Part shown: piece by piece, positions 3,771 through 62,173 of the stretch
Layout: each line of letters opens with the position of its first letter
Numbering within the stretch: position 1 is the first letter of the stretch
From: a virus
Virus record (IMG/VR): IMGVR_UViG_3300021399_000016
Coordinates: 1,808 to 65,807 of that record
Direction: 5' to 3' (one strand)
DNA length: 64,000 bases
The notes under the pieces: model-generated
Told to the model about the DNA's origin: nothing
What the model saw: the letters and a program-made list of their open reading frames with translations, nothing else
The model's database searches: none
Made by a program: the position numbers and the translations under genes

Positions 3771-3795
3771 TCGTAGAAAAAACATATCCTATAAT
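3771..3795 (+). promoter_or_regulatory. phage promoter-like motif upstream of nuclease-nuclease-RNAP operon
   Basis: TCGTA GAAAAAA CA TAT C C TATAAT; matches the 22-copy consensus. Confidence 0.7.
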
Positions 3796-4182: not shown

Positions 4183-4684
4183 GTACTTCTGGCTTAACTA
4201 TGACAAGGAGAAAGCCCTTGCTTATTACAAGAGTCTTCTTGCAAAGAAAGCTGGAACTGAGTACCACGAGATTGCGAAGCAGTGCATTGACCATGGTATT
4301 CAGCTTAAAGGACGAAATACGTTAGCACGTTATGTGAACGATGCTATTGGATTCCGTATGCGTACTGAGCAGTTGCTCGTTTATTCAAAGTATTTCTTTG
4401 GTACTGCTGACGCTATTATATTTCAGGAAAAGGATAAGCTTCTTAGAATCCACGACTTGAAGACCGGCACCATCCCTGCTAAGCTCGACCAGTTACTCAT
4501 CTATGACGCGCTGTTCTGTCTTGAGTATCGGATTGATCCTTCAACGATTAATCATGAGCTTCGGATTTATCAGAATAATGAAATCCTTTCTGACAATCCT
4601 GATGCAGATCAGATCGCACCAATTATGGAAAAGATTCAATCTTTTAACCAGTTCATAGAAGAGTATGAAGAGGGCATAGTGTGA
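4121..4684 (+). CDS. PD-(D/E)xK (Cas4/RecB-like) exonuclease
   Basis: GTADAI...IHDLKTG...QLLIY. Confidence 0.7.
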   Translation: MKWNEHSKLLEGAHAPFGASKYFWLNYDKEKALAYYKSLLAKKAGTEYHEIAKQCIDHGIQLKGRNTLARYVNDAIGFRMRTEQLLVYSKYFFGTADAIIFQEKDKLLRIHDLKTGTIPAKLDQLLIYDALFCLEYRIDPSTINHELRIYQNNEILSDNPDADQIAPIMEKIQSFNQFIEEYEEGIV

Positions 4685-38665: not shown

Positions 38666-39517
38666 ATGGGCTATATTGCTAAAACTAAAATAGGGTCTAC
38701 AACCTACCCTGTAGGCTCCTGTCTGTATGGAACGTGTGCTACAGCGGCCGCAACAACAGAAAAAGACGTGGTGTGTTCAGACTTTGATACTTTGCTTGAA
38801 GGTGTGACTATCCACGTTAAGTTTACGCATCATAATGGTGTAGCGAATCCAACACTTGACGTTAATAGTACCGGAGCCAAAGCCATTAAACGATATGGAA
38901 CTACAGCTCCTTCTACTAGTGCTGGTTCGTCTTGGCAGGATGGATCTGTTGTAAGCTTCACATATGATGGAACGTACTGGCAGATGAATGGGTGGCTTAA
39001 TGATAACTCTAACACTTACGATAGAGAATATCTTAATGCTACCACGAAAGCTGTTAGTGCTATTACTGCTGGTACTCTTATGTGCGGTACTGCAAGCGGC
39101 TATAAGCAGGTAGCTAAGGGTGTTGCATTTGATATTTCATACCCAATATGTTACACGGGTAGCGCGTACGCCGCAAATGGTACGAGATCGGATCCGTATC
39201 CAGCCATACCATTTAGTTTCAAAGCAACTAATGGCGGCACAGCTCCGAACTTTACCGCTTACAAGGCAGTTTACCTTAAGGGCAAGTTAGTTGGGTCTAC
39301 GTTTACAATCGACTCAACAACCATGTGGACTCAGACAGTACCGACAAGTGCTGATGGATTCCAGTATTATTTACTTGGTACTGCATATACTACTGAATCC
39401 ATGAGACTTATTCATGTCCATCCTATCTTTGAGTATAGAGACGGATCTTTTCATAAGCATAATCCAACCAAAGCAACATACACAGCATCTACAGAAACTT
39501 TAGAGATTAATTTCTAA
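38666..39517 (+). CDS. tail fibre-like protein
   Basis: YGTCATAAATTEK...NPTLDVNSTGAK...FTYDGTYW. Confidence 0.6.
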   Translation: MGYIAKTKIGSTTYPVGSCLYGTCATAAATTEKDVVCSDFDTLLEGVTIHVKFTHHNGVANPTLDVNSTGAKAIKRYGTTAPSTSAGSSWQDGSVVSFTYDGTYWQMNGWLNDNSNTYDREYLNATTKAVSAITAGTLMCGTASGYKQVAKGVAFDISYPICYTGSAYAANGTRSDPYPAIPFSFKATNGGTAPNFTAYKAVYLKGKLVGSTFTIDSTTMWTQTVPTSADGFQYYLLGTAYTTESMRLIHVHPIFEYRDGSFHKHNPTKATYTASTETLEINF

Positions 39518-39529
39518 GGAGGTATCAAA

Positions 39530-39709
39530 ATGGCAGCAATTGTTGATAAATTAAAGAAACAGATTAAAGCACAGAACAAATCCACAGCAGGAGTTCAGAC
39601 TATTTCTCAGGCTATCAAGGCTCTTGGTGGCGAGAGAGAAGGAGAGGATATTGCTAAAGCAGTGGATGGCTCTATTATTACCGTAACCAAAGCTTCTGAA
39701 GAGGAGTAA
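39530..39709 (+). CDS. small hypothetical protein (59 aa)
   Basis: RBS AAGGAGG; not in ORF track. Confidence 0.6.
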   Translation: MAAIVDKLKKQIKAQNKSTAGVQTISQAIKALGGEREGEDIAKAVDGSIITVTKASEEE

Positions 39710-39712
39710 ACT

Positions 39713-40051
39713 ATGACTACTAACATCTTCACAAAAGAGTGGCTGATCCCAGCTTTAAATAGAGCCGTTAGAACAATGGTTCAGGTAGCACTCTCTATGT
39801 TCAGTGTGGGTCAGCTTATCACCGATATTGACTGGGTAGCAATTTTATCTTGCGCTGTTGTGGCAGGGATCTATTCTCTCGGAACATCTGTTCTCCTTGG
39901 AATCCCGGAAGGAGACACTGCTGGAACAGTGAATCTCGATAACTATCAGGGCGATGATATTATGTATGTATCTGACTTACGTATTGACCCTGAGAAACTT
40001 AAGACCAGATCTACGGTGACGTTCAACGTAAAAACTGGCAGTAAGGAGTAA
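39713..40051 (+). CDS. holin (r1t-like)
   Basis: RAVRTMVQVAL..IDWVAILS..GTSVLLGIPE, two TM segments. Confidence 0.7.
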   Translation: MTTNIFTKEWLIPALNRAVRTMVQVALSMFSVGQLITDIDWVAILSCAVVAGIYSLGTSVLLGIPEGDTAGTVNLDNYQGDDIMYVSDLRIDPEKLKTRSTVTFNVKTGSKE

Positions 40052-40059
40052 CGCACTTC

Positions 40060-40244
40060 TACATTAATCCTACACTTTAACCCTAAAACACAAGCTTTTA
40101 AGCCGATTTTAAGAATCAATTATGTGGTACTTTTCGCCCAATGCTAATCCTTAGAAAATGGCTTAAAAGCTTATGTTTACGGGGTAGGTAGAGTCAGTTA
40201 AGAGTAGTTAAAATAGGACTGTTCATACATTACTCCTACACTTT
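40060..40244. repeat. attP-like region: 19-bp direct repeats around a ~30-bp inverted repeat
   Basis: TACATTA(A/C)TCCTACACTTT at 40060-40078 and 40226-40244; IR arms 40081-40110 and 40155-40184. Confidence 0.6.
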
Positions 40245-40381
40245 GTTAATCTCCGAACGAAGCCAATCAATGTCACGCTCTGTATACACATTCTCTGTTA
40301 AATCAGAGATTACGTGTCCAATAATCCTCTTAATCGCAAAATCTTCAACGCCTTTCTTTTTTTTGCCATGGTAACGAAGGT
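40236..40381 (-). pseudogene. C-terminal remnant of tyrosine integrase
   Basis: TFVTMAK/KKGVEDFAIKRIIGHVISDLTENVYTERDIDWLRSEINKV*; GH and catalytic Y present; frameshift in A8 run; in-frame stop upstream. Confidence 0.75.
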
Positions 40382-40470
40382 TTATTGGCTTATGAGCTTT
40401 CGGCGGTAGGTCGTAATTTTTTCAATTCGTATAATAGCAAATTAACTTTTTATTCGAAAGGAGAATAAGC

Positions 40471-40803
40471 ATGGAAAATACAATGGTTAATGTTTCTGAA
40501 AAAACCGAAATGGAGAAACTCATCGATTGGCTTAGTGAGAATTTGGATGGCAAATTCCGTCTTAAGCAGCGCTATATTAACGGTGGATCACAGGTGATGA
40601 TCTTCGATAGTAAAGGCGACTATCTTTGGGACGCGATTTGTAACAACATGTCTTACGGACGTGAAGATGGACTTATCGAGGTTATGGAACACACCGTTAA
40701 CAACTATGTGCTCACGGAAGAAGAAAGGAGTTACGACGACGTTTTGGGTTGGCTTACAGCCCAGGATATAATCGACAGATTAGAGGGTAAGAGCTCTGAG
40801 TAA
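40471..40803 (+). CDS. cassette hypothetical protein
   Basis: Own promoter, RBS and terminator; DAIC..SYG.EDGLIEVM..DDVLGWLTA. Confidence 0.75.
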   Translation: MENTMVNVSEKTEMEKLIDWLSENLDGKFRLKQRYINGGSQVMIFDSKGDYLWDAICNNMSYGREDGLIEVMEHTVNNYVLTEEERSYDDVLGWLTAQDIIDRLEGKSSE

Positions 40804-40867
40804 AATCAGGGCTTTTTCTTTTTGCTCGTATATTTTTCAACTCCTTTAATGAAGGAGGTAAAATCAA

Positions 40868-41050
40868 ATGTCTAATGAAGAGTTAGAAGTAAAGGTGCAA
40901 AATCTGGAAAAACGATTAACACAGTTAGAAGGATATTTTAAATCTTTATGTTACAGAATTAGATTTGAGCAAACCGGAAACGAAGAGTTTTTAAAGAAAG
41001 CTAAAGAAGAAACAGAATTAACAGATTGGTTAATAAAGAATTGGCTCTGA
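40868..41050 (+). CDS. cassette small coiled-coil protein
   Basis: Promoter 40826, RBS AAGGAGG, terminator. Confidence 0.7.
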   Translation: MSNEELEVKVQNLEKRLTQLEGYFKSLCYRIRFEQTGNEEFLKKAKEETELTDWLIKNWL

Positions 41051-41128
41051 TTAATTTCAGGGCTCTTTTCTTTTTCGCAAAATTTTCATCTCCTATTATA
41101 GAAAATATATTCAGAAAGGAGATTTGTT

Positions 41129-41323
41129 ATGAGAACATTAAAAGTAGTACCGTATTCGCCTGCGGAGGATAAATTTGTAAACAAGCTTATGCCTGTTTGT
41201 AAAGATAAAGTTGTCTGCAGACTTGGAGCACTTTTTGGATGGCCATATAACGAATACGTTATAACTGAAGAAGATTTTCAACGGATAAAAACAGAAATTT
41301 TAAAAGAAAAGAAGGAGTCCTGA
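41129..41323 (+). CDS. cassette hypothetical protein
   Basis: Promoter 41075, RBS, terminator. Confidence 0.7.
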   Translation: MRTLKVVPYSPAEDKFVNKLMPVCKDKVVCRLGALFGWPYNEYVITEEDFQRIKTEILKEKKES

Positions 41324-41345
41324 ACAAGGGCTTTTCTTTTTGCTC

Positions 41346-41387
41346 TCGAACAAAGTGAGAGGGCCGTTGAGTGTAACGAAACAAAAC
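41346..41387. repeat. 42-bp double-hairpin repeat, copy 1
   Basis: TCGAACAAAGTGAGAGGGCCGTTGAGTGTAACGAAACAAAAC; near-identical at 46328 and 60595. Confidence 0.8.
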
Positions 41388-41409
41388 AACTTTGAAAGGA
41401 GAAAACCAC

Positions 41410-41658
41410 ATGAGAAGTAAGCCAATTTGCCCTGACACAAGAAAATGTTTTGGAAGAAAAGCTACATCTGACGTTTGTAATGTATTAAGATCTGACGAAC
41501 ACGGAAGGTTTTATAAGAAAGACAGAGAGTGTCCTTTTTGTAAGCCCGAGAGAGACAAAACAGACGGAAAGAAGTACCCCATGATGTATGGAGAGAATCC
41601 GGGCTATATCAAAATGCCAAAGGATGATCCGGATTGGAGCAATGATGGAAAGATCTGA
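41410..41658 (+). CDS. Cys-rich hypothetical protein
   Basis: C..CF..C.VL..CPFCK; RBS AAAGGAG. Confidence 0.65.
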   Translation: MRSKPICPDTRKCFGRKATSDVCNVLRSDEHGRFYKKDRECPFCKPERDKTDGKKYPMMYGENPGYIKMPKDDPDWSNDGKI

Positions 41659-41866
41659 AGCTTACAAAATAGTATACGATGATCTTATTAAGTTCAACAT
41701 GTTCAAAGGCGTATACGACGCTAAAAACGGGAATATTTCATTCATGAACGGTATAGCCTGCGTAATGGAAGTTATCGCTAATGACGCCGGATGCTACGAC
41801 GAATTCTGTGAACTTTTCTCAGATAACATTCTGAAATCTGAAAAGAAAGCTAAAACGAAATCCTAA
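41642..41866 (+). CDS. hypothetical protein
   Basis: GVYDAKNGN..FMNGI; overlaps upstream gene. Confidence 0.6.
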   Translation: MMERSEAYKIVYDDLIKFNMFKGVYDAKNGNISFMNGIACVMEVIANDAGCYDEFCELFSDNILKSEKKAKTKS

Positions 41867-41996
41867 AATTTTCCCGGTGGGAGTTTTTAGGAAATGATTT
41901 CAAGCATATGGGTTACAGCTTTCTGTGGTACTTTGGTATTCGTAAAAATTTCACCTCGTATAATGCAAACTGTTGTTTAATTCAAAGGAGGGAACT

Positions 41997-42302
41997 ATGG
42001 AATACTATTCTGTAGCTGGATTTTATTTGGATTTTGGAGCAGACGATGTGGACCAGGACCTGTTTCCTGAAGAAAAATACAGGTCCAAAGAGAACGCTAT
42101 GAAGCGAGCTCTGGAGGAGGTAGCAAAGGTCGAGAAGGAGAAAGGTGTTTCTCTGGAAAGACGCGACTACGACACATGTACCGTGTGGTCGTGGGATAAT
42201 GAGGCTGAATATAAAGCCAATTATCCTTACGGGCCATGGCGGTGCAATGATGGTGTCAAGATCGGCGTCTGGAAGGAGAAACTGGTCCTTCTTGATGACT
42301 GA
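41997..42302 (+). CDS. cassette hypothetical protein
   Basis: Promoter 41940, RBS AAAGGAGG, terminator. Confidence 0.7.
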   Translation: MEYYSVAGFYLDFGADDVDQDLFPEEKYRSKENAMKRALEEVAKVEKEKGVSLERRDYDTCTVWSWDNEAEYKANYPYGPWRCNDGVKIGVWKEKLVLLDD

Positions 42303-42402
42303 TCCAGAGAGGCTTCATAGCCTCTTTTCTTTTGCTCTTGAACGAAACGAAGTCGCAATAAAAACATACCCTCTTATAGAATAATACTAAGGAGGAATAG
42401 AT

Positions 42403-42570
42403 ATGTTTATGCTATTAGCAGCCCTTGGAGTGATATTTACAGTACTGTTCGGTACGCTGCCTGGAGCGGTGTACTTCGGAATAGCGATGTTTTATGACTA
42501 CCGATTTGGACCGGTAGCAATTCTGTTACTATTCTTAAATGCGTGTTATGTAATGCTAAGCTCGGATTGA
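42403..42570 (+). CDS. cassette small membrane protein (55 aa)
   Basis: Promoter 42353, RBS AAGGAGG, hydrophobic. Confidence 0.6.
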   Translation: MFMLLAALGVIFTVLFGTLPGAVYFGIAMFYDYRFGPVAILLLFLNACYVMLSSD

Positions 42571-42692
42571 TATCTGGGCTTAATATTTTTCTCACTCCTT
42601 TCGAACAACAGTTCGTAATTTTTACAATGCATATAATGAAGGACTAAGTAAGATTAATTACAACCGTTGATCGAGCCTGAAAGGAGGACGAC

Positions 42693-42887
42693 ATGACGAA
42701 GCTTTATAGCTGGGTTGCTGCGATGGAAGAAATCGTGAGGATTCTTGGGGGTAACGCTGAAAGTGTTACCTACGAGGGTAAGCGCGAGACTTACCGTCGA
42801 GGCGGAAAGGCGGTGGAGCTGGAGCGTGAGCTTTGGTTCGACGACGAGGAGTATAACTCCTACGTGGTCAAGGAGGTAAGCACTTAA
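42693..42887 (+). CDS. cassette hypothetical protein
   Basis: Promoter 42613, RBS, terminator TAAGCAC-TTAACA-GTGCTTA. Confidence 0.7.
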   Translation: MTKLYSWVAAMEEIVRILGGNAESVTYEGKRETYRRGGKAVELERELWFDDEEYNSYVVKEVST

Positions 42888-42967
42888 CAGTGCTTATTTC
42901 TTTTTCTTTTCGTTCAAAATTTACAACGCCTTTAATGACAATGAAAACAATTTAAAGGAGGTAAAGG

Positions 42968-43300
42968 ATGAGACTTTATGCGGAATGTATTATGAAAGGG
43001 ATCAAGAAACAGTACCGTGACAAAGTTAGGGAAGAGTTTGTTCGCTGTTATTCTGATATTGTAGATGAAAACAATGCGCGGTTCACTGTGTGGAATGACG
43101 AGTATGATCGACTGTACGGAAGTGTCGATGATTCGCATTATAACAGGTGGATCGCGGAAAGGATGCAAAATCAGATCGACAGTAAAGAGAGATCTAAATT
43201 CTTGGTATTTATTGTGAACCCGGATGATGATACCATTCACGCCTATATTAAGGGCTATGCGAAACAAACCGATATTTACTTTGGATTTAATGAGGCTTAA
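42968..43300 (+). CDS. cassette hypothetical protein
   Basis: Variant promoter, RBS, hairpin GAGGC-TTAACAAA-GCCTC. Confidence 0.7.
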   Translation: MRLYAECIMKGIKKQYRDKVREEFVRCYSDIVDENNARFTVWNDEYDRLYGSVDDSHYNRWIAERMQNQIDSKERSKFLVFIVNPDDDTIHAYIKGYAKQTDIYFGFNEA

Positions 43301-43366
43301 CAAAGCCTCGTATTTTTTACAAAGCATATAATGCAAACTAATAATGAGATTTTAAAGGAGGATTTT

Positions 43367-43537
43367 ATGAGTAAATTTAGCATTAAAAAGATTCTTGTCG
43401 GTTTAGGAATCCTGGCAGCCGGTATTGCCGGTTACTTTGGATTAAAGGACGCAAAAAGAAACTACGTTAATGCGAGAAAGGAGGAAGAGACTCCGGACGA
43501 AGATCCGTGTGAGTTTGTGGAAGATGAGGACGCTTAA
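43367..43537 (+). CDS. cassette membrane-anchored protein with acidic tail
   Basis: TM ILVGLGILAAGIAGYFGL; ends EDEDA. Confidence 0.7.
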   Translation: MSKFSIKKILVGLGILAAGIAGYFGLKDAKRNYVNARKEEETPDEDPCEFVEDEDA

Positions 43538-43554
43538 CAGCGTCTTTTTCTTTT
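43529..43554 (+). terminator. repeated terminator GACGC-TTAACA-GCGTC-T tract
   Basis: Same core at about 46071 and 60565; stop codon lies in the loop. Confidence 0.75.
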
Positions 43555-43611
43555 TCGTAATAGATTCAGAGCCTATAATGACACGTTAACTTACTTGAAA
43601 GGAGAACAAGT

Positions 43612-44001
43612 ATGGAAGAAGAGAGAAAAGAAGAAGATGTCCTGGACCTTGCGATTCAGAACGAGTACGAAAACAGCGGTAGTTTTGCTGTTGGAACGGA
43701 GCAGTTGACTAAGTCGAACTCGACTATTGCAGCACTGTACAAGGCAAAAGCTGATATTCTTAAGTCTCAGACCGAGGCTGAAACCGAAGCTAATAAGATC
43801 GAAGCAGAGAAAGAGATCAAGTTGGCCGAAATTGAAGCCGAGGAAAGGAGAGATAAGCGGCAGACCTTGCAGCGTTACGTCGGGGTTGGCGCGATGGTGG
43901 CTGTTGCAGGAGCGGCGCTGTTTGCGGATTCAGACAGCTGGATTGGAAGAGTCAATAAAGGAGTTTTCAACTTGGCAACTAAAGTAATATTTAGAGGCTG
44001 A
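43612..44001 (+). CDS. cassette coiled-coil protein with C-terminal TM
   Basis: Promoter 43555, RBS, terminator. Confidence 0.7.
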   Translation: MEEERKEEDVLDLAIQNEYENSGSFAVGTEQLTKSNSTIAALYKAKADILKSQTEAETEANKIEAEKEIKLAEIEAEERRDKRQTLQRYVGVGAMVAVAGAALFADSDSWIGRVNKGVFNLATKVIFRG

Positions 44002-44097
44002 GTTGACGGTCAAGGCTCTGTAGAAATTACAGGGCCTTTTATTTTTGCCGTTGAACGTAGTGAGAGGGCCTCGTATTTTTTACACACCGTATAATGC

Positions 44098-44213
44098 AAA
44101 ATATAGATACAAGCGGGGCGGGTCCTGTATACGGGGCATGAGGTACCAAGGTAGATGTAGATATTCTACTGAGGGGTGGTAACGACGTGAGTCCACCAGA
44201 TGCTATATTTTTT
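44098..44213 (+). ncRNA. candidate structured small RNA in its own cassette
   Basis: Promoter 44071, no RBS/ORF, 5' AAAATATAG pairs 3' CTATATTTT, three internal hairpins, ends in T run. Confidence 0.55.
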
Positions 44214-44274
44214 TCGAATTTTTTACATTCCCTATTATGGGGTTGAAAATACATTGATATTTGGAGGCGAACTT

Positions 44275-44499
44275 ATGAAAGAGTTTTTACTGAAGCATCC
44301 ATTTTGGGCTTACTGTATGCTCAACTGTATGTGCGTTACTGTAGAAAGTATAGTTAATGGACGCCAGAAGAGAGAAAAGTTTTTAAACCGAATGGTGGAT
44401 ATAGCAGATGAAACAGTAGGAGAACTTAAGGAGAAGTTTGAAAAGAAGAACGACAAAGTAGTACCGATGGGTTTTCACTTCAATAGAGAAGAGGCTTAA
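44275..44499 (+). CDS. cassette protein (KHPF family, paralog of 60908)
   Basis: FLLKHPFW..ESIVNG vs FAVRHPFI..TIVRG. Confidence 0.65.
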   Translation: MKEFLLKHPFWAYCMLNCMCVTVESIVNGRQKREKFLNRMVDIADETVGELKEKFEKKNDKVVPMGFHFNREEA

Positions 44500-44583
44500 C
44501 ATAGCCTCTTAATTTCTCGTAATTTTTACAATACGTATAATGAAATAGTAATACTAAATATTATAAAAACGGAGGATATAGAA

Positions 44584-44883
44584 ATGAGAAAACTTATCGC
44601 TGTTATTATGATGATGGTAGCTATGAGCAATGTGGCTTTTGGAGCCGCAATTGGAGAGTATGAAAAGATGCGAATCTTAGAAGGTACTTATGAGGTATGC
44701 GATAAGTATCCTTCTGTGAAAGGCTTGAATACTGATACTTGGACGGAAGTTGATGCTTTCGGAAACCAGTATAGGATTTATTCCTATATGGAATCCGGAA
44801 AACAGAAACTGGTCTGTCTTAAGCATCATGTATCGAGACAGGAACGGAAGGCGCTTAAAGCAGCAAAGAAAGCTGATAAGTAA
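44584..44883 (+). CDS. cassette secreted protein
   Basis: Signal peptide MRKLIAVIMMMVAMSNVAFG. Confidence 0.7.
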   Translation: MRKLIAVIMMMVAMSNVAFGAAIGEYEKMRILEGTYEVCDKYPSVKGLNTDTWTEVDAFGNQYRIYSYMESGKQKLVCLKHHVSRQERKALKAAKKADK

Positions 44884-44971
44884 CTTCTGAGAAGAAGAGC
44901 GATTTTCATGCTCTTCTTTTTTTTCTCGTAAAATTTTCAACGCCTATAATGAACAGAAAGGAGATATTATT

Positions 44972-45103
44972 ATGGCAAACTTTTTAAGCGGATTTTGGAC
45001 GCCGTCCATGATCATGACTACAGTTATGATGATGGCGTCTATGGCTGCTTTTATAGCAGCTATGGTGTATCTTAATGATGAAGAAGAGAAGGACTCTGAA
45101 TAA
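44972..45103 (+). CDS. cassette small membrane protein (43 aa)
   Basis: Promoter 44926, RBS AAAGGAG, TM plus acidic tail. Confidence 0.6.
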   Translation: MANFLSGFWTPSMIMTTVMMMASMAAFIAAMVYLNDEEEKDSE

Positions 45104-45147
45104 TTTCAGGGTCTTTTCTTTTTCGTAAAATTCTCAATGCATATAAT

Positions 45148-45213
45148 GAAGACTAAGTCGAAATGGTAAGACGCTGGGAAACCAGAGGAATGGGTTCGAT
45201 TCCCATAGTCTTT
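45148..45213 (+). ncRNA. tRNA-like RNA lacking an anticodon loop
   Basis: GAAGACT/AGTCTTT acceptor, GTC-GAAATGGTAA-GAC D arm, CTGG-GAAA-CCAG arm, ATGGG-TTCGATT-CCCAT T arm; promoter 45123; T run. Confidence 0.75.
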
Positions 45214-45393
45214 ATTTTTTTTCTTTTTGAACGAAGTGAGGAATGTAGTGGAGTATGTTTCTGAACTTAGCACTAAAATTGAAAAACTTGAGGAGGCAAA
45301 CGAGAAGTAATAGTAAACGGGGAGTTTAACAGCTCCTCGTATTTTTTTCACTCCCTATAATGCAAACTGAAAACGATTTTAAAGGAGGTAGCA

Positions 45394-45522
45394 ATGAATA
45401 ATCCTTGGGAAGTAATCGGCTTGGTTTTAATTGGAGTAATTTTAACTGGTTGGTTAGGTCCTGTTGGGTTGCTCGCAACCTGCATTGGGATCGCTTACAG
45501 ATTTAAGAAGAAAGGAGAGTGA
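45394..45522 (+). CDS. cassette small membrane protein (42 aa)
   Basis: Promoter 45337, RBS AAAGGAGG. Confidence 0.6.
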   Translation: MNNPWEVIGLVLIGVILTGWLGPVGLLATCIGIAYRFKKKGE

Positions 45523-45525
45523 GAA

Positions 45526-45645
45526 ATGACTGATAAAAAGAGAATAATCAAAATACTTTGGTATTACGCTGTCTTTTACACTGTGGTGTATAAGATGGTT
45601 GATATAGCAATAGAGATTGATGATATTTGGGAGAGGTCTTTTTGA
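45526..45645 (+). CDS. small protein (39 aa)
   Basis: RBS AAAGGAG, followed by terminator. Confidence 0.5.
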   Translation: MTDKKRIIKILWYYAVFYTVVYKMVDIAIEIDDIWERSF

Positions 45646-45728
45646 TCTCTTCTTTTTTTTGAACGCTCATTCGTAATTTTTTCAATCCTTATAATGCAAA
45701 CTTATGATTTCATTTAAGGAGGAAGATT

Positions 45729-46079
45729 ATGGATATTAGAAAACTTTTTGGATTAGAAACCGAGAACGAGAACCTGGTCGGAATGACCGAAGCAATCATG
45801 GACGAATCCGAGAGGATCATGAAGAAAGCATTGGTTGGAACCATGAAGTTCGAAAACATTCAGGACATGAGTTCTGAGGATTTTGAGCTTATACGCGAGA
45901 GCAGTGCTCTTTGGAAAGATTACAAAGATTGCGCCATGAAAGCTGCGGAACGTCTCGACCAGATGGAAGACTTGAAAAAGGAGGTAGAAAAAATGAATAA
46001 GAAGCTTGATTACTATAACGAGCTTCTTAGTGAGATCAAGACAAATCTGCGAGAAATCGCAGAGAAGAAGGACGCTTAA
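45729..46079 (+). CDS. cassette coiled-coil protein
   Basis: Promoter 45671, RBS, shared terminator. Confidence 0.72.
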   Translation: MDIRKLFGLETENENLVGMTEAIMDESERIMKKALVGTMKFENIQDMSSEDFELIRESSALWKDYKDCAMKAAERLDQMEDLKKEVEKMNKKLDYYNELLSEIKTNLREIAEKKDA

Positions 46080-46205
46080 CAGCGTCTTTTTCTTTTAGAT
46101 TCGAAGGCACTGAGAAGCTATATTGCGAATGAAATGAGCTTCGTAAAATTTTCACTCCTTATATTGAAACTGTAATGTGCAGAATAAATTAAGGAGGAAA
46201 TGCTT

Positions 46206-46283
46206 ATGTTTATGTTAGGTATTTGTATGATCTTAATGGGAGTTGCGATATTAATATTTGACAACAAACAAGGTAAAGATTGA
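46206..46283 (+). CDS. cassette micro membrane peptide (25 aa)
   Basis: Promoter 46141, RBS AAGGAGG, terminator GGGAAC..GTTTCCC. Confidence 0.5.
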   Translation: MFMLGICMILMGVAILIFDNKQGKD

Positions 46284-46327
46284 TCCTGATGGGAACTGTA
46301 CATTGCAGTTTCCCTTTATTTTTGCTA

Positions 46328-46369
46328 TCGAACGAAGTGAGAGGGCCGTTGAGCGTAACGAAACAAAAC
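46328..46369. repeat. 42-bp double-hairpin repeat, copy 2
   Basis: TCGAACGAAGTGAGAGGGCCGTTGAGCGTAACGAAACAAAAC. Confidence 0.8.
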
Positions 46370-46388
46370 GAAAGGAGGAAAAACACAT

Positions 46389-46580
46389 TTGTTTATTCAT
46401 GTAAATTTTAAGAATGGAAACAAACCTCTTCTATTTCGTGGTAATGAGTCGATGGTAAATGAAAAAATCGAAGAACTTAAGAAAGACTATTACCTTGAAG
46501 TAGACACGCTCGTATCTGGTGGAATATTTGTTGACGCCGACAGACTTGACATAGAGGAGGATTATACGAATGAAAAATAA
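46389..46580 (+). CDS. hypothetical protein
   Basis: RBS AAAGGAGG, TTG start. Confidence 0.55.
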   Translation: MFIHVNFKNGNKPLLFRGNESMVNEKIEELKKDYYLEVDTLVSGGIFVDADRLDIEEDYTNEK

Positions 46581-47355
46581 GAAACTTGTGATATTTGGAG
46601 CTCTTGCAATCGGCGGACTTGTTGCAACTGCTGTAGCTACTGCGTGGGGGACTGCGAAGGCTACTAGAAAGATCGACGAAGTTAAGCCTGAAACGAAGAA
46701 AGAAACCGTGAAGCTCGTATGGAAGTATTATATTCCGGCTGGTATCGCAATGGGCGTCACGATTATTTCAGATGTGTGTTTCTATCGGATTGGTCTTAAG
46801 GAAATTGCAGCTCTTACTGCTTCTGTATCATACCTTACGGCTAACAGGGATAAGCTTGAAAAGAAGTTTAAAGAGACTGTTGGCGAAGAGAAGTTTAAAG
46901 AAATTAAAGATAATGTTAGAACCGAACTTGCGACCGAATTTGCACCGAAGAAGGGAGAAAAGAACGTCCCTTTCGAATTAATGAAAACGCGGTTTCCAGC
47001 CGAGCCTACAGGTTGTGGAGAGACTCTGTTTCAAGACGGCTGGAGCGGGAGATTCTTCAGATCTGACGTTCCATCTGTTGTTGACGCAATAAAGAAGTTT
47101 AACGATAGATGGGGTAACGGCGAGTACATGTGTTACAACGACCTCTATGATTTGTGGGGAATTACATGCACTCATCAGGGCAATGAGTATGGTTGGCCAA
47201 ATAATGACAACGAACTTGATACTTCCGTAGATATTGAGTTTGAAATTAACAGAATCGGAGAAGAAGAGATGGTCGAAGGGTATAGAAATATTGGTGAAGA
47301 TATTTACGTTATCGAACCTGTAACCTATCCGATGCTGTGCTGGCAGGAATTATAA
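46570..47355 (+). CDS. membrane-associated protein, paralog family A (DUF6353-like)
   Basis: Hydrophobic N-terminal helices; D..SGRFFRS..YNDLY..GW. Confidence 0.7.
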   Translation: MKNKKLVIFGALAIGGLVATAVATAWGTAKATRKIDEVKPETKKETVKLVWKYYIPAGIAMGVTIISDVCFYRIGLKEIAALTASVSYLTANRDKLEKKFKETVGEEKFKEIKDNVRTELATEFAPKKGEKNVPFELMKTRFPAEPTGCGETLFQDGWSGRFFRSDVPSVVDAIKKFNDRWGNGEYMCYNDLYDLWGITCTHQGNEYGWPNNDNELDTSVDIEFEINRIGEEEMVEGYRNIGEDIYVIEPVTYPMLCWQEL

Positions 47356-47367
47356 GGAGGAACAAAA

Positions 47368-48207
47368 ATGAGCATTTTTAAGAAATTTATTAAATCCGCA
47401 ACAACGACGTTCATTAAGAATAAGCCGGCGATTATGACCGGTATTGCACTTGTGTCTCTCGGTACTACTGTTTACGTTGCGCTTAAAGAGGGCGGAAATA
47501 TTAAGGAAGTTCTTGATATTCATAAGGATGAAGTAAATGAAATCGAGAACGATCCTAAGTTAACTGCGGAAGAGAAGACTGAAGAGATTAAGAAAGAGCA
47601 TATGGCAGCTGCTAAGGCTATTGCTCCGTCTATCGGTATGGTTGGTCTTGCAGCTGGCATTACAGCATTTAGTATCTTTGGTATTAACAAAGCTCATACT
47701 GCTAAAGAGATTGCTGCGTCAGCTTTACTTGAAAGTTATAAGGCGCAGGTCTTAAAGTATGAAGAAAAGTTGCCTGACGTTCTTGGTAAAAAGAAAGCGG
47801 AAGAGTTCATGACCGATGTACATATTGCATCGTCAGAAGATTTAAGTAAAAAGGCAGGTACTGATCAGGCGTACACGGCGGTTAAATACACAGATAAGGT
47901 ACCGATGATCGACTCATTTGGTACAAGGTTTATCGCGTCACATAACGAATTGGATAAGGCAATAAATCATCTTGGAAAGGAGCTAGTAGATGACCAACGA
48001 CCAGTTAACTATTCCGACTTCATGTATGAGAACTTCAGTAAAGTCGACATAAACGAGAACGCTGCAGATTTCTTCTTTGATCCGGATGATATTCCGACAA
48101 TTAGAACCGAGGTGTATCAGGATCCGATCTTAGATACGCCCGCTTATCACGTTTATTACAGGTATGGCGGGCCGGTCCCTTCTGGGAAATTAGAGCACAG
48201 GTATTGA
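47368..48207 (+). CDS. membrane-associated protein, paralog family A
   Basis: KNKPAIMTGIALV..TVYVA; DSFGTRF..YSDF. Confidence 0.7.
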   Translation: MSIFKKFIKSATTTFIKNKPAIMTGIALVSLGTTVYVALKEGGNIKEVLDIHKDEVNEIENDPKLTAEEKTEEIKKEHMAAAKAIAPSIGMVGLAAGITAFSIFGINKAHTAKEIAASALLESYKAQVLKYEEKLPDVLGKKKAEEFMTDVHIASSEDLSKKAGTDQAYTAVKYTDKVPMIDSFGTRFIASHNELDKAINHLGKELVDDQRPVNYSDFMYENFSKVDINENAADFFFDPDDIPTIRTEVYQDPILDTPAYHVYYRYGGPVPSGKLEHRY

Positions 48208-48257
48208 TATCCTACTGGGATGCAACGAGCCTCGATGAATTGTGGTAAGTTCTTGTC

Positions 48258-48282
48258 TCGTAATTTTTTCAATGCATATAAT
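48258..48282 (+). promoter_or_regulatory. promoter-like motif copy
   Basis: TCGTA ATTTTTT CA ATG C A TATAAT. Confidence 0.75.
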
Positions 48283-48314
48283 GCAAATGTTGTGTGTATT
48301 GAAAGGAGAAAATC

Positions 48315-48533
48315 ATGTTCGGATACAAACTTGTTAAAGAGGAGAAAACCGAAAACAAAAAAGAGAAGACCTTTACAGTAAAGGGCGCTCTTAAGACGGT
48401 GGGAAAGACGGTTGGCGTCGGACTCGCAGTCGGAGGAGCCTTCCTTGCTGGGAAGGAATTCGACAAACTTGGGTTCGGAAAGGAGGACAAGACCGAAGAA
48501 CCTGATGATCAGCCTGTAGGTACTGACGACTGA
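48315..48533 (+). CDS. cassette membrane-anchored protein with acidic tail
   Basis: VGVGLAVGGAFLAG; terminator at about 48540-48570. Confidence 0.7.
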   Translation: MFGYKLVKEEKTENKKEKTFTVKGALKTVGKTVGVGLAVGGAFLAGKEFDKLGFGKEDKTEEPDDQPVGTDD

Positions 48534-48615
48534 GTAACGAAGAGCTTGTGAGAAATCACAGGCTCTTTTGTTTCTATCCTTATTAAACAGAACAAAATGA
48601 AAAGGAGAACAAACT

Positions 48616-49608
48616 ATGGCAAATACTATCGACACGACCGTATCCAACATCCTTGCTGAGACTGCTCCTAGCGAGGCGAAAGTGAATCCTTTTAGAGGTT
48701 ACAAGGGAAGCGAAATCGGACTTCAGAAAGGTCACGAAACCAGAACAAGGAAACGTCTTGAAAACATCGAACTCTTAAAGAGTATCATAAAAGACGCTAA
48801 GGGTAAGATCTCCAGAAAAGAACTTAAAGAAATAACTGGAATGGCCACATCAAGTCTTGACAGTTATATTAATGCTTTCGATGACTCGCATTATGTAAAA
48901 ACATACGGTTTTATTGAGTATGTTGAAAATCCTAAAGATCAGGAAAAGATCAAGGAAGTTACCGAAAAGGCTGAGAAAGCAGCTAAGGAAACCTTCGAAA
49001 GATACAACCCTATTAAAAAGAACGACGAAGGATACTCCGATCACACAGCGGGAAAGGCGATCCAGATGATTGACGACATTAATGGCTATCAGAAACCTGG
49101 TGAGATCTGGAGAAGCACGTACTCTAACGGAAACAGAGTTAATGTAGTAGTAATCCAGTCCTTTAAGGATGGCTTCTGCACCTGTTTTGAAGTAAAGAAA
49201 GACCCCGCTGGTATGGGTAAACTCTATAACCCGATTTACTGCGTTTGCATAGACCTTTACACGAAGGAATATGTGGACTGCAGAAGAGCTATGAGTAGGC
49301 CAACTAGATATTTGACCGAGAAGGTTGGCGAAGTTAAGAATTTCGCAGCGATTATCAACAAGTATTGCTTCTTACACGAGATGCTTGTTGAAAAGGTTGT
49401 GGAAGTTGAGAAAGTTGTAGAGAAGCCTGTTGAAGTAATTAAAGAAGTTCCTGTCGAGAAGAAAGTCGAAGTTCCTGTTGAAGTCATAAAAGAGGTTCCC
49501 GTTGAAAAGAGCGTAGAGCCAATTGACGTTGCTTTACTTAGACAAAAGGCTGAATTTTTCGAGAAGGCTTATCACGATCTGCTGGATGTTCTGAAGGGGG
49601 TGGAGTGA
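48616..49608 (+). CDS. hypothetical protein with HTH-like segment and VEKPVEV repeats
   Basis: ISRKELKEITGMATSSLDSYI; KNDEGYSDHTA; VEKVVEKPVEVIKEVPVEK repeats. Confidence 0.7.
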   Translation: MANTIDTTVSNILAETAPSEAKVNPFRGYKGSEIGLQKGHETRTRKRLENIELLKSIIKDAKGKISRKELKEITGMATSSLDSYINAFDDSHYVKTYGFIEYVENPKDQEKIKEVTEKAEKAAKETFERYNPIKKNDEGYSDHTAGKAIQMIDDINGYQKPGEIWRSTYSNGNRVNVVVIQSFKDGFCTCFEVKKDPAGMGKLYNPIYCVCIDLYTKEYVDCRRAMSRPTRYLTEKVGEVKNFAAIINKYCFLHEMLVEKVVEVEKVVEKPVEVIKEVPVEKKVEVPVEVIKEVPVEKSVEPIDVALLRQKAEFFEKAYHDLLDVLKGVE

Positions 49609-60034: not shown

Positions 60035-60108
60035 TATTATATCCGCGTAGAAAAAACAAATCCTATAATAGAAACCGAAAATTTGTTTTTGTGAAAGGAG
60101 AAAACACC

Positions 60109-60288
60109 ATGAAAGCAAGAAATGTTTTAGCTATTGGACTTGGCATTGTGGGAGGGATTATCTTTGGTGGCTTAAGTGGGGCCGCTAAGGTAATCCAAGA
60201 CGACGCCTGGGCCGATCTGAAGGACAGTGCGATGAAGTGGAAAGAAGAGCGCGAAAACAAAAAGGAGGAGGAAGACGAGGATGCTTAA
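60109..60288 (+). CDS. cassette membrane-anchored protein with acidic tail
   Basis: LAIGLGIVGGIIFGGL; ends EEEDEDA. Confidence 0.7.
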   Translation: MKARNVLAIGLGIVGGIIFGGLSGAAKVIQDDAWADLKDSAMKWKEERENKKEEEDEDA

Positions 60289-60354
60289 CGGCTCCTCGTA
60301 TTTTTTTCAGCTCTTATAATGCAAACCGTTGGTTTAATTTAAAGGAGGACTGAT

Positions 60355-60573
60355 ATGTGTATTAAAGATTTTACAATTGGTTTTGTGTTGGGAGCATTAG
60401 GAGCTGTTGCCGGTGCTATCGTCGGTTACAAAGTGGCTAAAGAAGAATTTGGTAACCTTGACGACCGACTTGACGGCATCGAGCATTATGCTTCTGATGC
60501 GGCAAACAGTTCAAGTTTAACGTATTATTGGACCCTTGGAAAGAAACCAAAGATGCAGGAAGAGGACGCTTAA
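60355..60573 (+). CDS. cassette membrane-anchored protein
   Basis: IGFVLGALGAVAGAIVG; ends EEDA. Confidence 0.7.
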   Translation: MCIKDFTIGFVLGALGAVAGAIVGYKVAKEEFGNLDDRLDGIEHYASDAANSSSLTYYWTLGKKPKMQEEDA

Positions 60574-60594
60574 CAGCGTCTTTTTCTTTTGTTC

Positions 60595-60636
60595 TCGAAC
60601 TAAGTGAGAGGGCCGTTGAGTGCAACGAAACAAAAC
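60595..60636. repeat. 42-bp double-hairpin repeat, copy 3
   Basis: TCGAACTAAGTGAGAGGGCCGTTGAGTGCAACGAAACAAAAC. Confidence 0.8.
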
Positions 60637-60688
60637 GAAGCTAAAACCATTTATATTTCTAACAAGTGAAAGGAGATTGCATTTAACT

Positions 60689-60856
60689 ATGAGAATTCTG
60701 CCGACTAAAGACGAAGTTAACACGATTTGTATGCTTGTTTCCATTGGTATCTGGGTTAGGATCGGCTGGGATATGGCTGAAGGGACCGGAACTGCTATCA
60801 GGGATTATATTTTAAGACCTGCCAGTAGGAAAATCGTTGATACTTTTAACTCGTAA
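60689..60856 (+). CDS. small membrane protein
   Basis: RBS AAAGGAG; hydrophobic core. Confidence 0.55.
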   Translation: MRILPTKDEVNTICMLVSIGIWVRIGWDMAEGTGTAIRDYILRPASRKIVDTFNS

Positions 60857-60907
60857 TTAATACAAACCGTATAATGCAAACTGTTGATATTTCAAAGGAG
60901 GAGAATT

Positions 60908-61255: not shown

Positions 61256-62173
61256 ATGTTTAAAAGCATTGGAAAGAAATTAAGCGTTGCTACTGCCAAA
61301 GTTGGAATGAAGATCGTAAAGCACTCTCCCGAGATTCTCTTTGGTCTCGGTGTAGTTGGATTCGTTGGAACCGTCGTGTATGCTACTGTGAAGGCCGGTC
61401 CTGCTGTAAATAAAGTGCTTGGCGAGCATAATGATAAGCATGACGACCTTGATATTATGCATGATGAAGGTGAAATTGACGATACAGAGCTTAAAAAGGA
61501 AGTAAGAAAGCTTTACGCTAATACTTTCTTCCGTACCGTTAAGGTAACTGCTCCGGTTGTTGCGATGGGTCTAGTGTCTATCGGATGCTTTGGCGGTGCG
61601 CAGTTTATTGTAGTCCGTCGCCTTGGTGCCATGACTACTGAGTATGTGCTCTTACAGAAGACTTTCGACACCTACAGAAGTAACGTGAGAGCTGATGGAG
61701 GTGACACGCTTGATGAAAGATATATGTATGGTCCTGAGAAAAGAGAGATGACCGCTCCTGTTCTTGATGAAGACGGGAATTTGACTGAGGAAACCAGAGA
61801 AGTCACCCAGATCAGGAGTATTCCAGAAAACTCTTATATTTGGGACCACAAATCTCCTACGTTTACCGGCATTGACAGCATGGATGACTATTATGTTGAG
61901 TGTAAGGAGAAGATGCTGCAGCATGAGTTCGAGAGAAAGGGTGTCTTAACGAGAGCAGATTTCCTTGATGCATTTAAGTTAAAAGATGATCTTGATAAAT
62001 CGAGAAAGTCTGGTAACGCGATTATGTTTGGTAGAGTCTGGAGCGATAAGGAAGGCGCTGATAACACGATTAGGATTACCAGATACAGGATCCCTGACTA
62101 TGAAAGTGGGTTCGGCAGATCAAGTAAGGTTGTACTCAGCTGGAATGAAGAGATGATTTATAACGCAATTTAA
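61256..62173 (+). CDS. membrane-associated protein, paralog family A (DUF6353-like)
   Basis: KHSPEILFGLGVVGFVGTVVYA..FDTYRSNV. Confidence 0.72.
   Translation: MFKSIGKKLSVATAKVGMKIVKHSPEILFGLGVVGFVGTVVYATVKAGPAVNKVLGEHNDKHDDLDIMHDEGEIDDTELKKEVRKLYANTFFRTVKVTAPVVAMGLVSIGCFGGAQFIVVRRLGAMTTEYVLLQKTFDTYRSNVRADGGDTLDERYMYGPEKREMTAPVLDEDGNLTEETREVTQIRSIPENSYIWDHKSPTFTGIDSMDDYYVECKEKMLQHEFERKGVLTRADFLDAFKLKDDLDKSRKSGNAIMFGRVWSDKEGADNTIRITRYRIPDYESGFGRSSKVVLSWNEEMIYNAI

Follow-up and report, generated by a model that had tools for sequence, protein, structure and literature searches.

A candidate cassette for an orphan structured small RNA in the mosaic early region of a siphovirus-type phage

Introduction

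To our knowledge, few phage-encoded small RNAs have been described and most of them are unexplained. Phage phi29 encodes an RNA of ~120 nucleotides (nt), the pRNA, which is expressed from a strong early promoter, has paired 5' and 3' ends and folds into a multi-helix junction; its family is included in Rfam. Here we analysed 64,000 nt of phage DNA (bases 1808-65807 of the 65.8-kb IMG/VR virus record IMGVR_UViG_3300021399_000016, hereafter the window) and within it one element, a predicted RNA that lies without an open reading frame (ORF) behind a full copy of a repeated promoter. In the account given in PMC9697503, RNAC and RNAD of phage T4 are phage-encoded stand-alone small RNAs of about the size of this element, with a function that is still unexplained. 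T4-type phages also carry PeSL (promoter-early stem-loop) cassettes, whose small accessory genes are framed by a strong promoter that recurs and by a terminator stem-loop; modules are inserted, deleted and replaced through recombination at the PeSL borders (as outlined in Arbiol et al. 2010, PMC2839356). In the T-box discriminator, as it is summarised in PMC7583486, helices A1 and A2 are separated by a 7-nt bulge that opens with UGGN, closes with ACC and pairs with the NCCA end of transfer RNA (tRNA).

Our analysis makes it probable that the product of the cassette is an orphan structured RNA about 115 bases long. The full reading takes 44046-44214 as a self-contained cassette that is mobile and encodes a small non-coding RNA, orphan, stand-alone and structured; we hold it with about even confidence.

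Results

An ORF-less cassette behind a repeated promoter

An earlier note on this DNA had described a full promoter copy driving about 115 nt with no ribosome-binding site (RBS) or ORF. We searched the window for TTTTTACA-N5-TAT[AT]AT with at most one mismatch and found 10 matches, all on the + strand, where 0.15 were expected; the copy at the element is an exact instance of the motif, confirming the promoter copy at the level of sequence. A looser promoter pattern matched 21 times on the + strand and once on the - strand, and 18 of the 21 looser + strand matches share an upstream CG(T/C/A)A, a T-rich context and a G or A right after TATAAT. An AGGAG-type RBS and a start codon follow within about 70 nt of the promoter in 16 of these 18 copies. 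The only two copies that have neither are the one at 44082, ahead of the element, and the one at 45134, ahead of a tRNA-shaped RNA. The element runs for about 118 nt from the end of its promoter to a run of seven T, and the next promoter copy begins at 44220. The sole ATG frame within the transcript (44138-44182) has 14 codons and no spaced RBS and is not credible as a gene, so the absence of an RBS and ORF was also borne out. The cassette is real: it is an ORF-less unit that extends from promoter to T-run.

A neighbouring tRNA-shaped RNA of the same design

The second ORF-less cassette (45134-45225) lies 1 kb downstream of the element. Its RNA, 45148-45214, scored 49 bits with the Rfam tRNA model, and ARAGORN made no call on it. 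In place of an anticodon loop it has a short stem capped by a GNRA tetraloop (GAAA), and the discriminator base is A. A homologue in contig L062 (292-358, - strand) scored 52.2 bits; it has GCAA instead of GAAA as the cap and differs from the window by compensatory changes in the acceptor, D and T stems. Since the acceptor stem covaries, the 5' strand of the tRNA-like RNA must be transcribed. In both the window and L062 this RNA begins at the G after TATAAT and a U-run directly follows its 3' strand, and the promoter in L062 is also preceded by a box similar to the one ahead of the element's promoter.

These features point to transcription that begins at the base after TATAAT or beside it, a geometry unlike that of sigma-70 promoters. 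The start would abut TATAAT because the tRNA-like 5' strand begins there and covaries, and because Shine-Dalgarno sequences follow at short distances elsewhere, at 4-8 nt past TATAAT for the promoter copy at 3782 and at 3-9 nt for two promoter copies in the phage contig L056. The repeated promoter has no -35 hexamer at 16-18 nt. With a start in this position, the RNA of the element would begin at G44096, two bases ahead of its closing helix, P1.

The two ORF-less cassettes are alike in promoter family, in the likely start at or next to the G after TATAAT, in their paired ends and in the U-run directly after; both have a GNRA-capped hairpin option, and they are adjacent in one relative, X10. 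They differ in that the tRNA-shaped RNA has a tRNA-model score and compensatory changes, whereas the element has extra junction linkers of 6 nt and 5 nt.

Predicted fold of the element RNA

Pair probabilities (p) were taken from the folding ensemble and are sequence-based predictions. The pairing of the two ends that the earlier note had seen was recovered as the 9-base-pair (bp) helix P1, in which AAAATATAG (44098-44106) pairs with CTATATTTT (44203-44211) at p 0.73-0.99. The first six bases (a GCAAAA start) and the last seven are generic to transcripts of this phage, and for this reason we held them fixed and shuffled the remaining sequence in 20,000 trials. An end helix of at least 9 bp arose in 46 of the 20,000 shuffles, making it unlikely by chance. 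The shape is predicted to be a four-way junction of P1 and three hairpins (arms A, B and C) with G-rich single-stranded linkers.

The internal stems proposed in the earlier note fared less well, and its complete structure came to -15.8 kcal/mol as compared to a minimum free energy of -30.1. ATACA and TGTAT are indeed complementary, but this stem is beaten by GUCCUG/CGGGGC at 44122-44137 (p 0.91-0.95). The GTAGA/TCTAC stem is present, yet GTAGAT is duplicated and its first copy is favoured as the partner (p 0.91-0.98 vs 0.02). Of the proposed hairpin GGTG..GAC-GTGA-GTC-CACC, the outer helix GGUGG/CCACC is favoured, whereas the inner GAC/GUC helix with its GUGA loop, of the GNRA type, is a near-isoenergetic minority (p 0.11-0.19; -24.2 vs -25.4 kcal/mol for the favoured register, calculated on the core). 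Arm C includes the word GGGUGGUAAC (44174-44183), which occurs a single time in the 64-kb window.

The element moves as a module among relatives

A scan of JGI metagenomes with the promoter pattern returned at least 116 stretches, several of them true relatives. Contigs from four ruminant or gut runs (X3, X4, X8 and X10) and the loci L031, L036 and L062 were compared with the window. Two relatives of the element itself were found, in metagenome contig L031 and in record 3 of the sheep-gut contig X10; blastn of the element against 120 loci gave L031 as the sole match.

In L031, 44046-44213 is identical at 167 of 168 positions with one extra T (50/50 over 44046-44095; 117/118 plus the extra T over the element). 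Identity to L031 is about 62% in the upstream gene and about 61% in its terminator, 85% in the next promoter and 5' untranslated region, and 91% in the gene of 74 amino acids (aa) that follows, so that it steps at 44046 and at 44214. The X10 record (488 nt) matches 44070-44209 at 129 of 140 positions, with 11 differences and no gaps. It has another upstream sequence, and its element joins at 44209 directly to 45119-45226, the tRNA-like cassette. In L062 the terminator of the upstream gene is joined directly to the 74-aa gene's own promoter and exactly 44047-44201 is missing. X3 tracks the window to 44046, after which 44046-44513 is replaced by 293 other bases, and an X4 contig diverges past 44046. 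As judged from these alignments, the pre-promoter box, the promoter and the element down to its T-run are inherited together as one module, which is present in three contexts, absent or replaced elsewhere, and bounded by T-run and promoter sequences that the cassettes share.

The early region from 42500 to 46500 as a whole appeared as a mosaic of terminator-promoter-bounded modules with whole-module insertions, deletions and replacements at shared borders. Joints among the relatives fall at 44046, 44513, 45107, 45222 and elsewhere, and in another replacement 45518-46141 is exchanged for 146 nt. The coordinates of the module and its parts are collected in Table 1.

Table 1. Features of the element cassette and its borders (window coordinates; transcript features are predicted)
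Feature	Position	Strand	Basis or remark
Terminator hairpin and T-run of the upstream 129-aa gene (43612-44001)	44012..44045	+	12-pair stem 44012-44038, then TTATTTTT
Left border of the mobile module, after that terminator	44046		Relatives diverge or break there
Pre-promoter box (…TGAACGTAGTGAGAGGGCCTCGTATT)	44046..44076	+	Co-inherited with promoter and RNA; similar boxes ahead of other cassettes
Full promoter copy, TTTTTACA-N5-TATAAT	44077..44095	+	Exact match to TTTTTACACACCGTATAAT
Putative transcription start, conserved G after TATAAT	44096	+	From the tRNA-like cassette and promoter geometry
Predicted ORF-less RNA, about 115-119 nt	44096..44214	+	Sequence, folding and promoter census
P1 closing helix, 5' strand AAAAUAUAG	44098..44106, with 44203-44211	+	Predicted, p 0.73-0.99
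Arm A	44113..44144	+	Predicted core hairpin 44122-44137 (GUCCUG-UAUA-CGGGGC), p 0.91-0.95; weak extensions, G-rich flanks
Arm B	44146..44174	+	Predicted core hairpin 44150-44170 (GGUAGA…UCUACU), p 0.91-0.98; duplicated GUAGAU in stem and loop
Arm C	44175..44197	+	Predicted GGUGG/CCACC helix, p 0.84-0.89; 7-nt loop, or 5-nt bulge and GAC-GUGA-GUC
3' strand of P1 (CUAUAUUUU) into 7-T run (44208-44214)	44203..44214	+	Putative termination site; right module border
Next promoter copy, TATTAT variant	44220..44238	+	Serves the 74-aa gene 44275-44499; outside the module

Searches for known families and further copies

Rfam 15 (4227 models, which cover known ribozymes, riboswitches, 6S, Y RNA, tmRNA and phage RNAs) was run over the whole window at gathering thresholds and returned the tRNA match at 45148-45214 only, with nothing on the element. 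At E<=10 no match in the region 43900-45400 overlapped the element, and a search of 44090-44220 (131 nt) at E<=10 gave two minus-strand matches at chance level (10.1 and 8.4 bits). ARAGORN called no tRNA or tmRNA on the element at default settings, with introns allowed or with thresholds lowered to 70-80%. The element has no T arm and no score with the tRNA model (RF00005). The idea of an uncharacterised phage small RNA of no known family is consistent with these negatives, with the lack of a credible ORF and with the self-contained module. The set of stems drawn for it was only partly right.

Further copies were sought by sequence, pattern and protein. In 50,697 phage records blastn found no match for 43600-44600, for 40001-48000 or for the element alone at E<=10. 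Exact patterns for the arm C 23-mer, a central 19-mer, the promoter plus element start, and two tRNA-like patterns each had 0 matches in IMG/VR, and two exact patterns had 0 matches in GTDB genome contigs. Searching with the upstream 129-aa protein gave no relative in IMG/VR and none in JGI metagenomes. The putative RNA polymerase of the phage (described below) led to one 10.5-kb contig in IMG/VR and a phrog_2152 protein to three distant IMG/VR loci without the promoter motif; the element was not found by these protein-anchored scans. The promoter motif was also absent from MT835495.1, a 69.8-kb fecal phage with a capsid identity of about 49%. A covariance model, R1, built from two sequences (the window and L031) was run over 19 sources comprising 161,082 bases of relatives; it recovered the window and L031 only, with two weak matches in the window (E 0.18 and 0.93), and it had no match in the 87-kb record of L007.

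Several motifs were looked for in the element and set aside. For a G-quadruplex the element would offer four runs of at least three G, but with loops of 10 and 36 nt. No GGA occurs anywhere in the element, as a CsrA sponge would need; the triplet spacing is irregular for a TRAP site; and no tandem G.A was found for a K-turn. A loop-loop kissing interaction of arms A and B would be disrupted by the substitution in L031.

The phage and its promoter family

The 65.8-kb record carries direct terminal repeats and encodes a siphovirus-type phage with a large terminase (phrog_9), a portal (phrog_12), a capsid-protease fusion and a tape measure protein of 2346 aa. Its nearest database relatives, at amino-acid identities of at most 50%, include gut contigs and phages of Arthrobacter, Gordonia, Streptomyces, Lactococcus and Faecalibacterium, and the sequencing runs that contain parts of the region are mostly goat, sheep and other gut metagenomes. 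Among the 20 runs listed none was an RNA run, which has no bearing on expression. Beyond ~40 kb all genes are small and on the + strand, each lying between a terminator hairpin and a copy of one promoter; the terminator scan found 30 terminator-like sites in 39500-49000 where 5.7 were expected. Three paralogous membrane-anchored phrog_2152 proteins are encoded in the early region (46570-47355, 47368-48207 and 61256-62173).

The promoter family can be written CGTAAtTTTT[T/A]CA-N5-TATAAT-G/A, with window copies at 3782, 40422-48282 and 60056-60875, and its form suggests a non-sigma-70 type. Related versions were seen in the unrelated-looking phage contigs L008/L009, L019 and L056. A subset of cassettes, both non-coding ones included, shares a conserved box (…GAACG-A/T-AGTGAGA…CTCGTAA) situated after the T-run and ahead of the promoter; examples are at 44046-44076 and 45218-45235 in the window and in the pre-promoter regions of L062 and L031. 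This box could extend the promoter or serve as a site of recombination. On the - strand of L056, at about 445-640, an ORF-less cassette of ~170 nt lies between two promoters and has no sequence similarity to the element. On the - strand of L019, at about 1624-1720, a promoter of this type drives a sequence that looks like a tRNA but had no Rfam match at gathering score; its D-loop region has an insertion, and a long stem with a four-base cap stands where the anticodon arm is expected.

A 960-aa protein encoded at 4681-7563 (+ strand) belongs to the PHROG family phrog_4291, for which the PHROGs label is 'RNA-dependent RNA polymerase'. In Pfam it weakly matches an RNA-dependent RNA polymerase (RdRP) family (PF05183, E 1.3e-3), and it contains two sigma-70 region-4-like helix-turn-helix (HTH) domains, at residues of about 131-154 and 924-960. 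Among phage records, 250 contain homologues, which in most cases are annotated only as HTH proteins. The protein may be a single-chain phage RNA polymerase that reads the repeated promoter.

Discussion

We favour a mobile cassette for a stand-alone structured RNA because of the promoter-to-T-run anatomy, the lack of coding capacity, the rare end helix, the dominant helices at p 0.73-0.99 and the module behaviour, and because the tRNA-like cassette of the same genome has the same design together with compensatory changes. In the mechanism that we propose, the repeated early-region promoter would start transcription at or next to G44096 and the RNA would end in the U-run 44208-44214, right after the 9-bp helix that joins both ends. 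The RNA is predicted to fold into the four-way junction, and its paired ends would make it a stable stand-alone molecule. It would probably be a trans-acting binder or decoy. How it would act is speculative: early in infection the RNA might serve as a decoy or sponge by binding a macromolecule of the host or the phage through its exposed G-rich linkers and loops, and it might share one accessory programme with the anticodon-less tRNA-shaped RNA nearby. The cassette would have spread by recombination at shared terminator and promoter borders, like the small protein genes around it.

A number of observations weigh against this account. The helix that abuts the U-run is the AU-rich P1, the last hairpin (arm C) ends 11 nt from the U-run, and the consensus terminator scan called no terminator at the 7-T run, suggesting non-canonical termination; as no canonical GC-rich hairpin precedes the U-run, an end there is presumptive. 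Of the nine pairs in P1, four are A-U pairs that join the A-rich transcript start to the U-run, both of them generic. L031 has a single substitution, T44164G, which falls in the arm B loop and leaves the helices unvaried between the two sequences. A k-mer complement search for antisense targets in the phage gave a longest complement of 10 nt, as compared to 9-13 nt in 30 shuffles, and none of 29 ORFs scanned against Pfam has an RNA-related domain that would mark a partner protein.

Other adverse observations also speak for the module being functionless filler, a promoter-terminator unit that lost its gene or never had one and is moved by border recombination, the RNA being a by-product. The minimum free energy of the element is matched or bettered by 46 of 200 shuffles (shuffle mean -27.65, sd 3.42; z -0.72), so the fold is no more stable than that of shuffled sequence, and the minus strand gave z -0.71. 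The element is absent or replaced in several relatives. In X10 it is kept at 92%, no better than the neighbouring protein gene (501/528, 95%) or the tRNA-like cassette (103/108, 95%), and module exchange alone can account for the L031 identity patch: the near-identity may reflect recent exchange and not selection because 44500-44569, at 70/70, is also 100% identical. As read from these sequences, the module pattern does not prove selection on the element RNA, since the L031 patch could be exchange and the X10 element is no better kept. Filler nevertheless leaves the 9-bp end helix as a rare accident, is not accompanied by any RBS or ORF remnant in the element, and sits poorly with 140 gap-free nt in X10 and with retention in three genomic contexts behind a full-strength promoter copy. 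We regard it as unlikely, though as the likeliest of the alternatives.

The stretch could instead act as DNA, as a protein-binding or recombination site between promoters, and its G-rich boxes, GTAGAT repeat, ATACA/TGTAT and GGTACC palindromes and its location at a module border where recombination occurs are of the kind that such a site would have. About two 6-nt palindromes are, however, expected by chance in 118 nt (calculated). The promoter points into the element and a T-run ends it, the same layout as in the 16 coding cassettes and the tRNA-like cassette, and the strongest feature is a long-range complement of the ends that is meaningful only for a single strand. A role at the DNA level is therefore improbable in our estimation.

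The possibility that the element is a cis-acting leader or attenuator of the 74-aa gene (44275-44499), with the structure and U-run tuning read-through, is largely refuted and is put slightly lower still. The element does lie directly upstream of that gene in the window and L031, and the U-run, with a weak helix ahead of it, could let some transcription through. The gene, however, has its own promoter copy at 44220-44238, L062 retains the gene and this promoter without the element, and in X10 the tRNA-like cassette follows the element instead. A module that is present in three contexts and absent or replaced in others is not a dedicated leader of the next gene.

A more specific proposal is a two-RNA system in which the element is a free-standing, trans-acting relative of the T-box discriminator. 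Arm C would re-pair so that the bulge UGGUAAC offers UGGU to capture the ACCA end of the tRNA mimic or of uncharged host tRNAs. The arm can be drawn as A1 (GGGG/C.CC), a 7-nt bulge, A2 (GAC/GUC) and a loop, the GGGUGGUAAC word is unique in the window, an RRRxG word (AGAUG) precedes the neighbouring stem as drawn in the earlier note, and the element adjoins the tRNA-like cassette in X10. Against this, the 131-nt search gave no Rfam T-box match even at E<=10, and adopting the register costs about 5-6 kcal/mol (-18.9 vs -24.2 to -25.4), with A1 having to accommodate a G.A mismatch. The stretch 44096-44214 also lacks the double T-loop words AGAGA and UGxRA, an AA following Stem III, a G.U pair at the foot of A2 and a terminator that could compete. 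Complementarity over 4 nt carries little weight, and L062 has the tRNA-like RNA without the element. We consider the system very improbable; if true, it would amount to RNA-only sensing or sequestering of tRNA ends early in infection, for example against defence toxins that act on the tRNA acceptor end. A micropeptide gene starting at ATG 44138 is close to negligible, as this ATG-initiated frame of 14 codons has no RBS at a usable distance, in contrast to the AGGAG-type sites in all 16 coding cassettes, and is cut to 8 codons by the L031 substitution, which places a stop at codon 9.

If the element is, as we favour, a compact and portable RNA gene that passes between ruminant-gut phages along with a non-decoding tRNA mimic, it would offer a way into RNA-based accessory or counter-defence functions among phages of gut Firmicutes. 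The cassette is also of use in defining the geometry of an unusual promoter with a start that appears to abut TATAAT and that may be read by a single-chain RdRP-like polymerase with sigma-region-4-like domains. The kind is already known, as a phage small RNA like T4 RNAC and RNAD in the account of PMC9697503, and this member matches no described family, although the supplementary lists of PMC10690425, a source of candidate structured RNAs from IMG/VR, could include the locus.

Comparison with described systems

The element resembles the T-box discriminator, to the extent that its published outline was compared, in the succession of a stem, a helix, a 5'-side bulge, a short helix and a loop, with UGGUAAC resembling UGGN…ACC. 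Unlike a T-box it fails most of the defining features in that outline, and its cassette regulates no downstream gene. Its predicted RNA would share with phi29 pRNA the general build set out above, but the element has no Rfam match, its phage packages with an ordinary large terminase and portal, and it is dispensable in relatives. T4 RNAC and RNAD sit in the tRNA gene region, and the element likewise adjoins a tRNA-shaped RNA. It differs from them in that no sequence or Rfam relation was found and in belonging to another phage group with another host; expression of the T4 RNAs has been shown, whereas the element is known from sequence alone. In the PeSL system, as far as its outline goes, the stem-loops are the borders; here the cargo is an ORF-less RNA and the promoter does not have the sigma-70 two-hexamer form. 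As in that system, 18 promoter copies together with terminator stem-loops flank the small genes of this phage, and the insertions, deletions and replacements fall at module borders, here at 44046 and 44202-44214.

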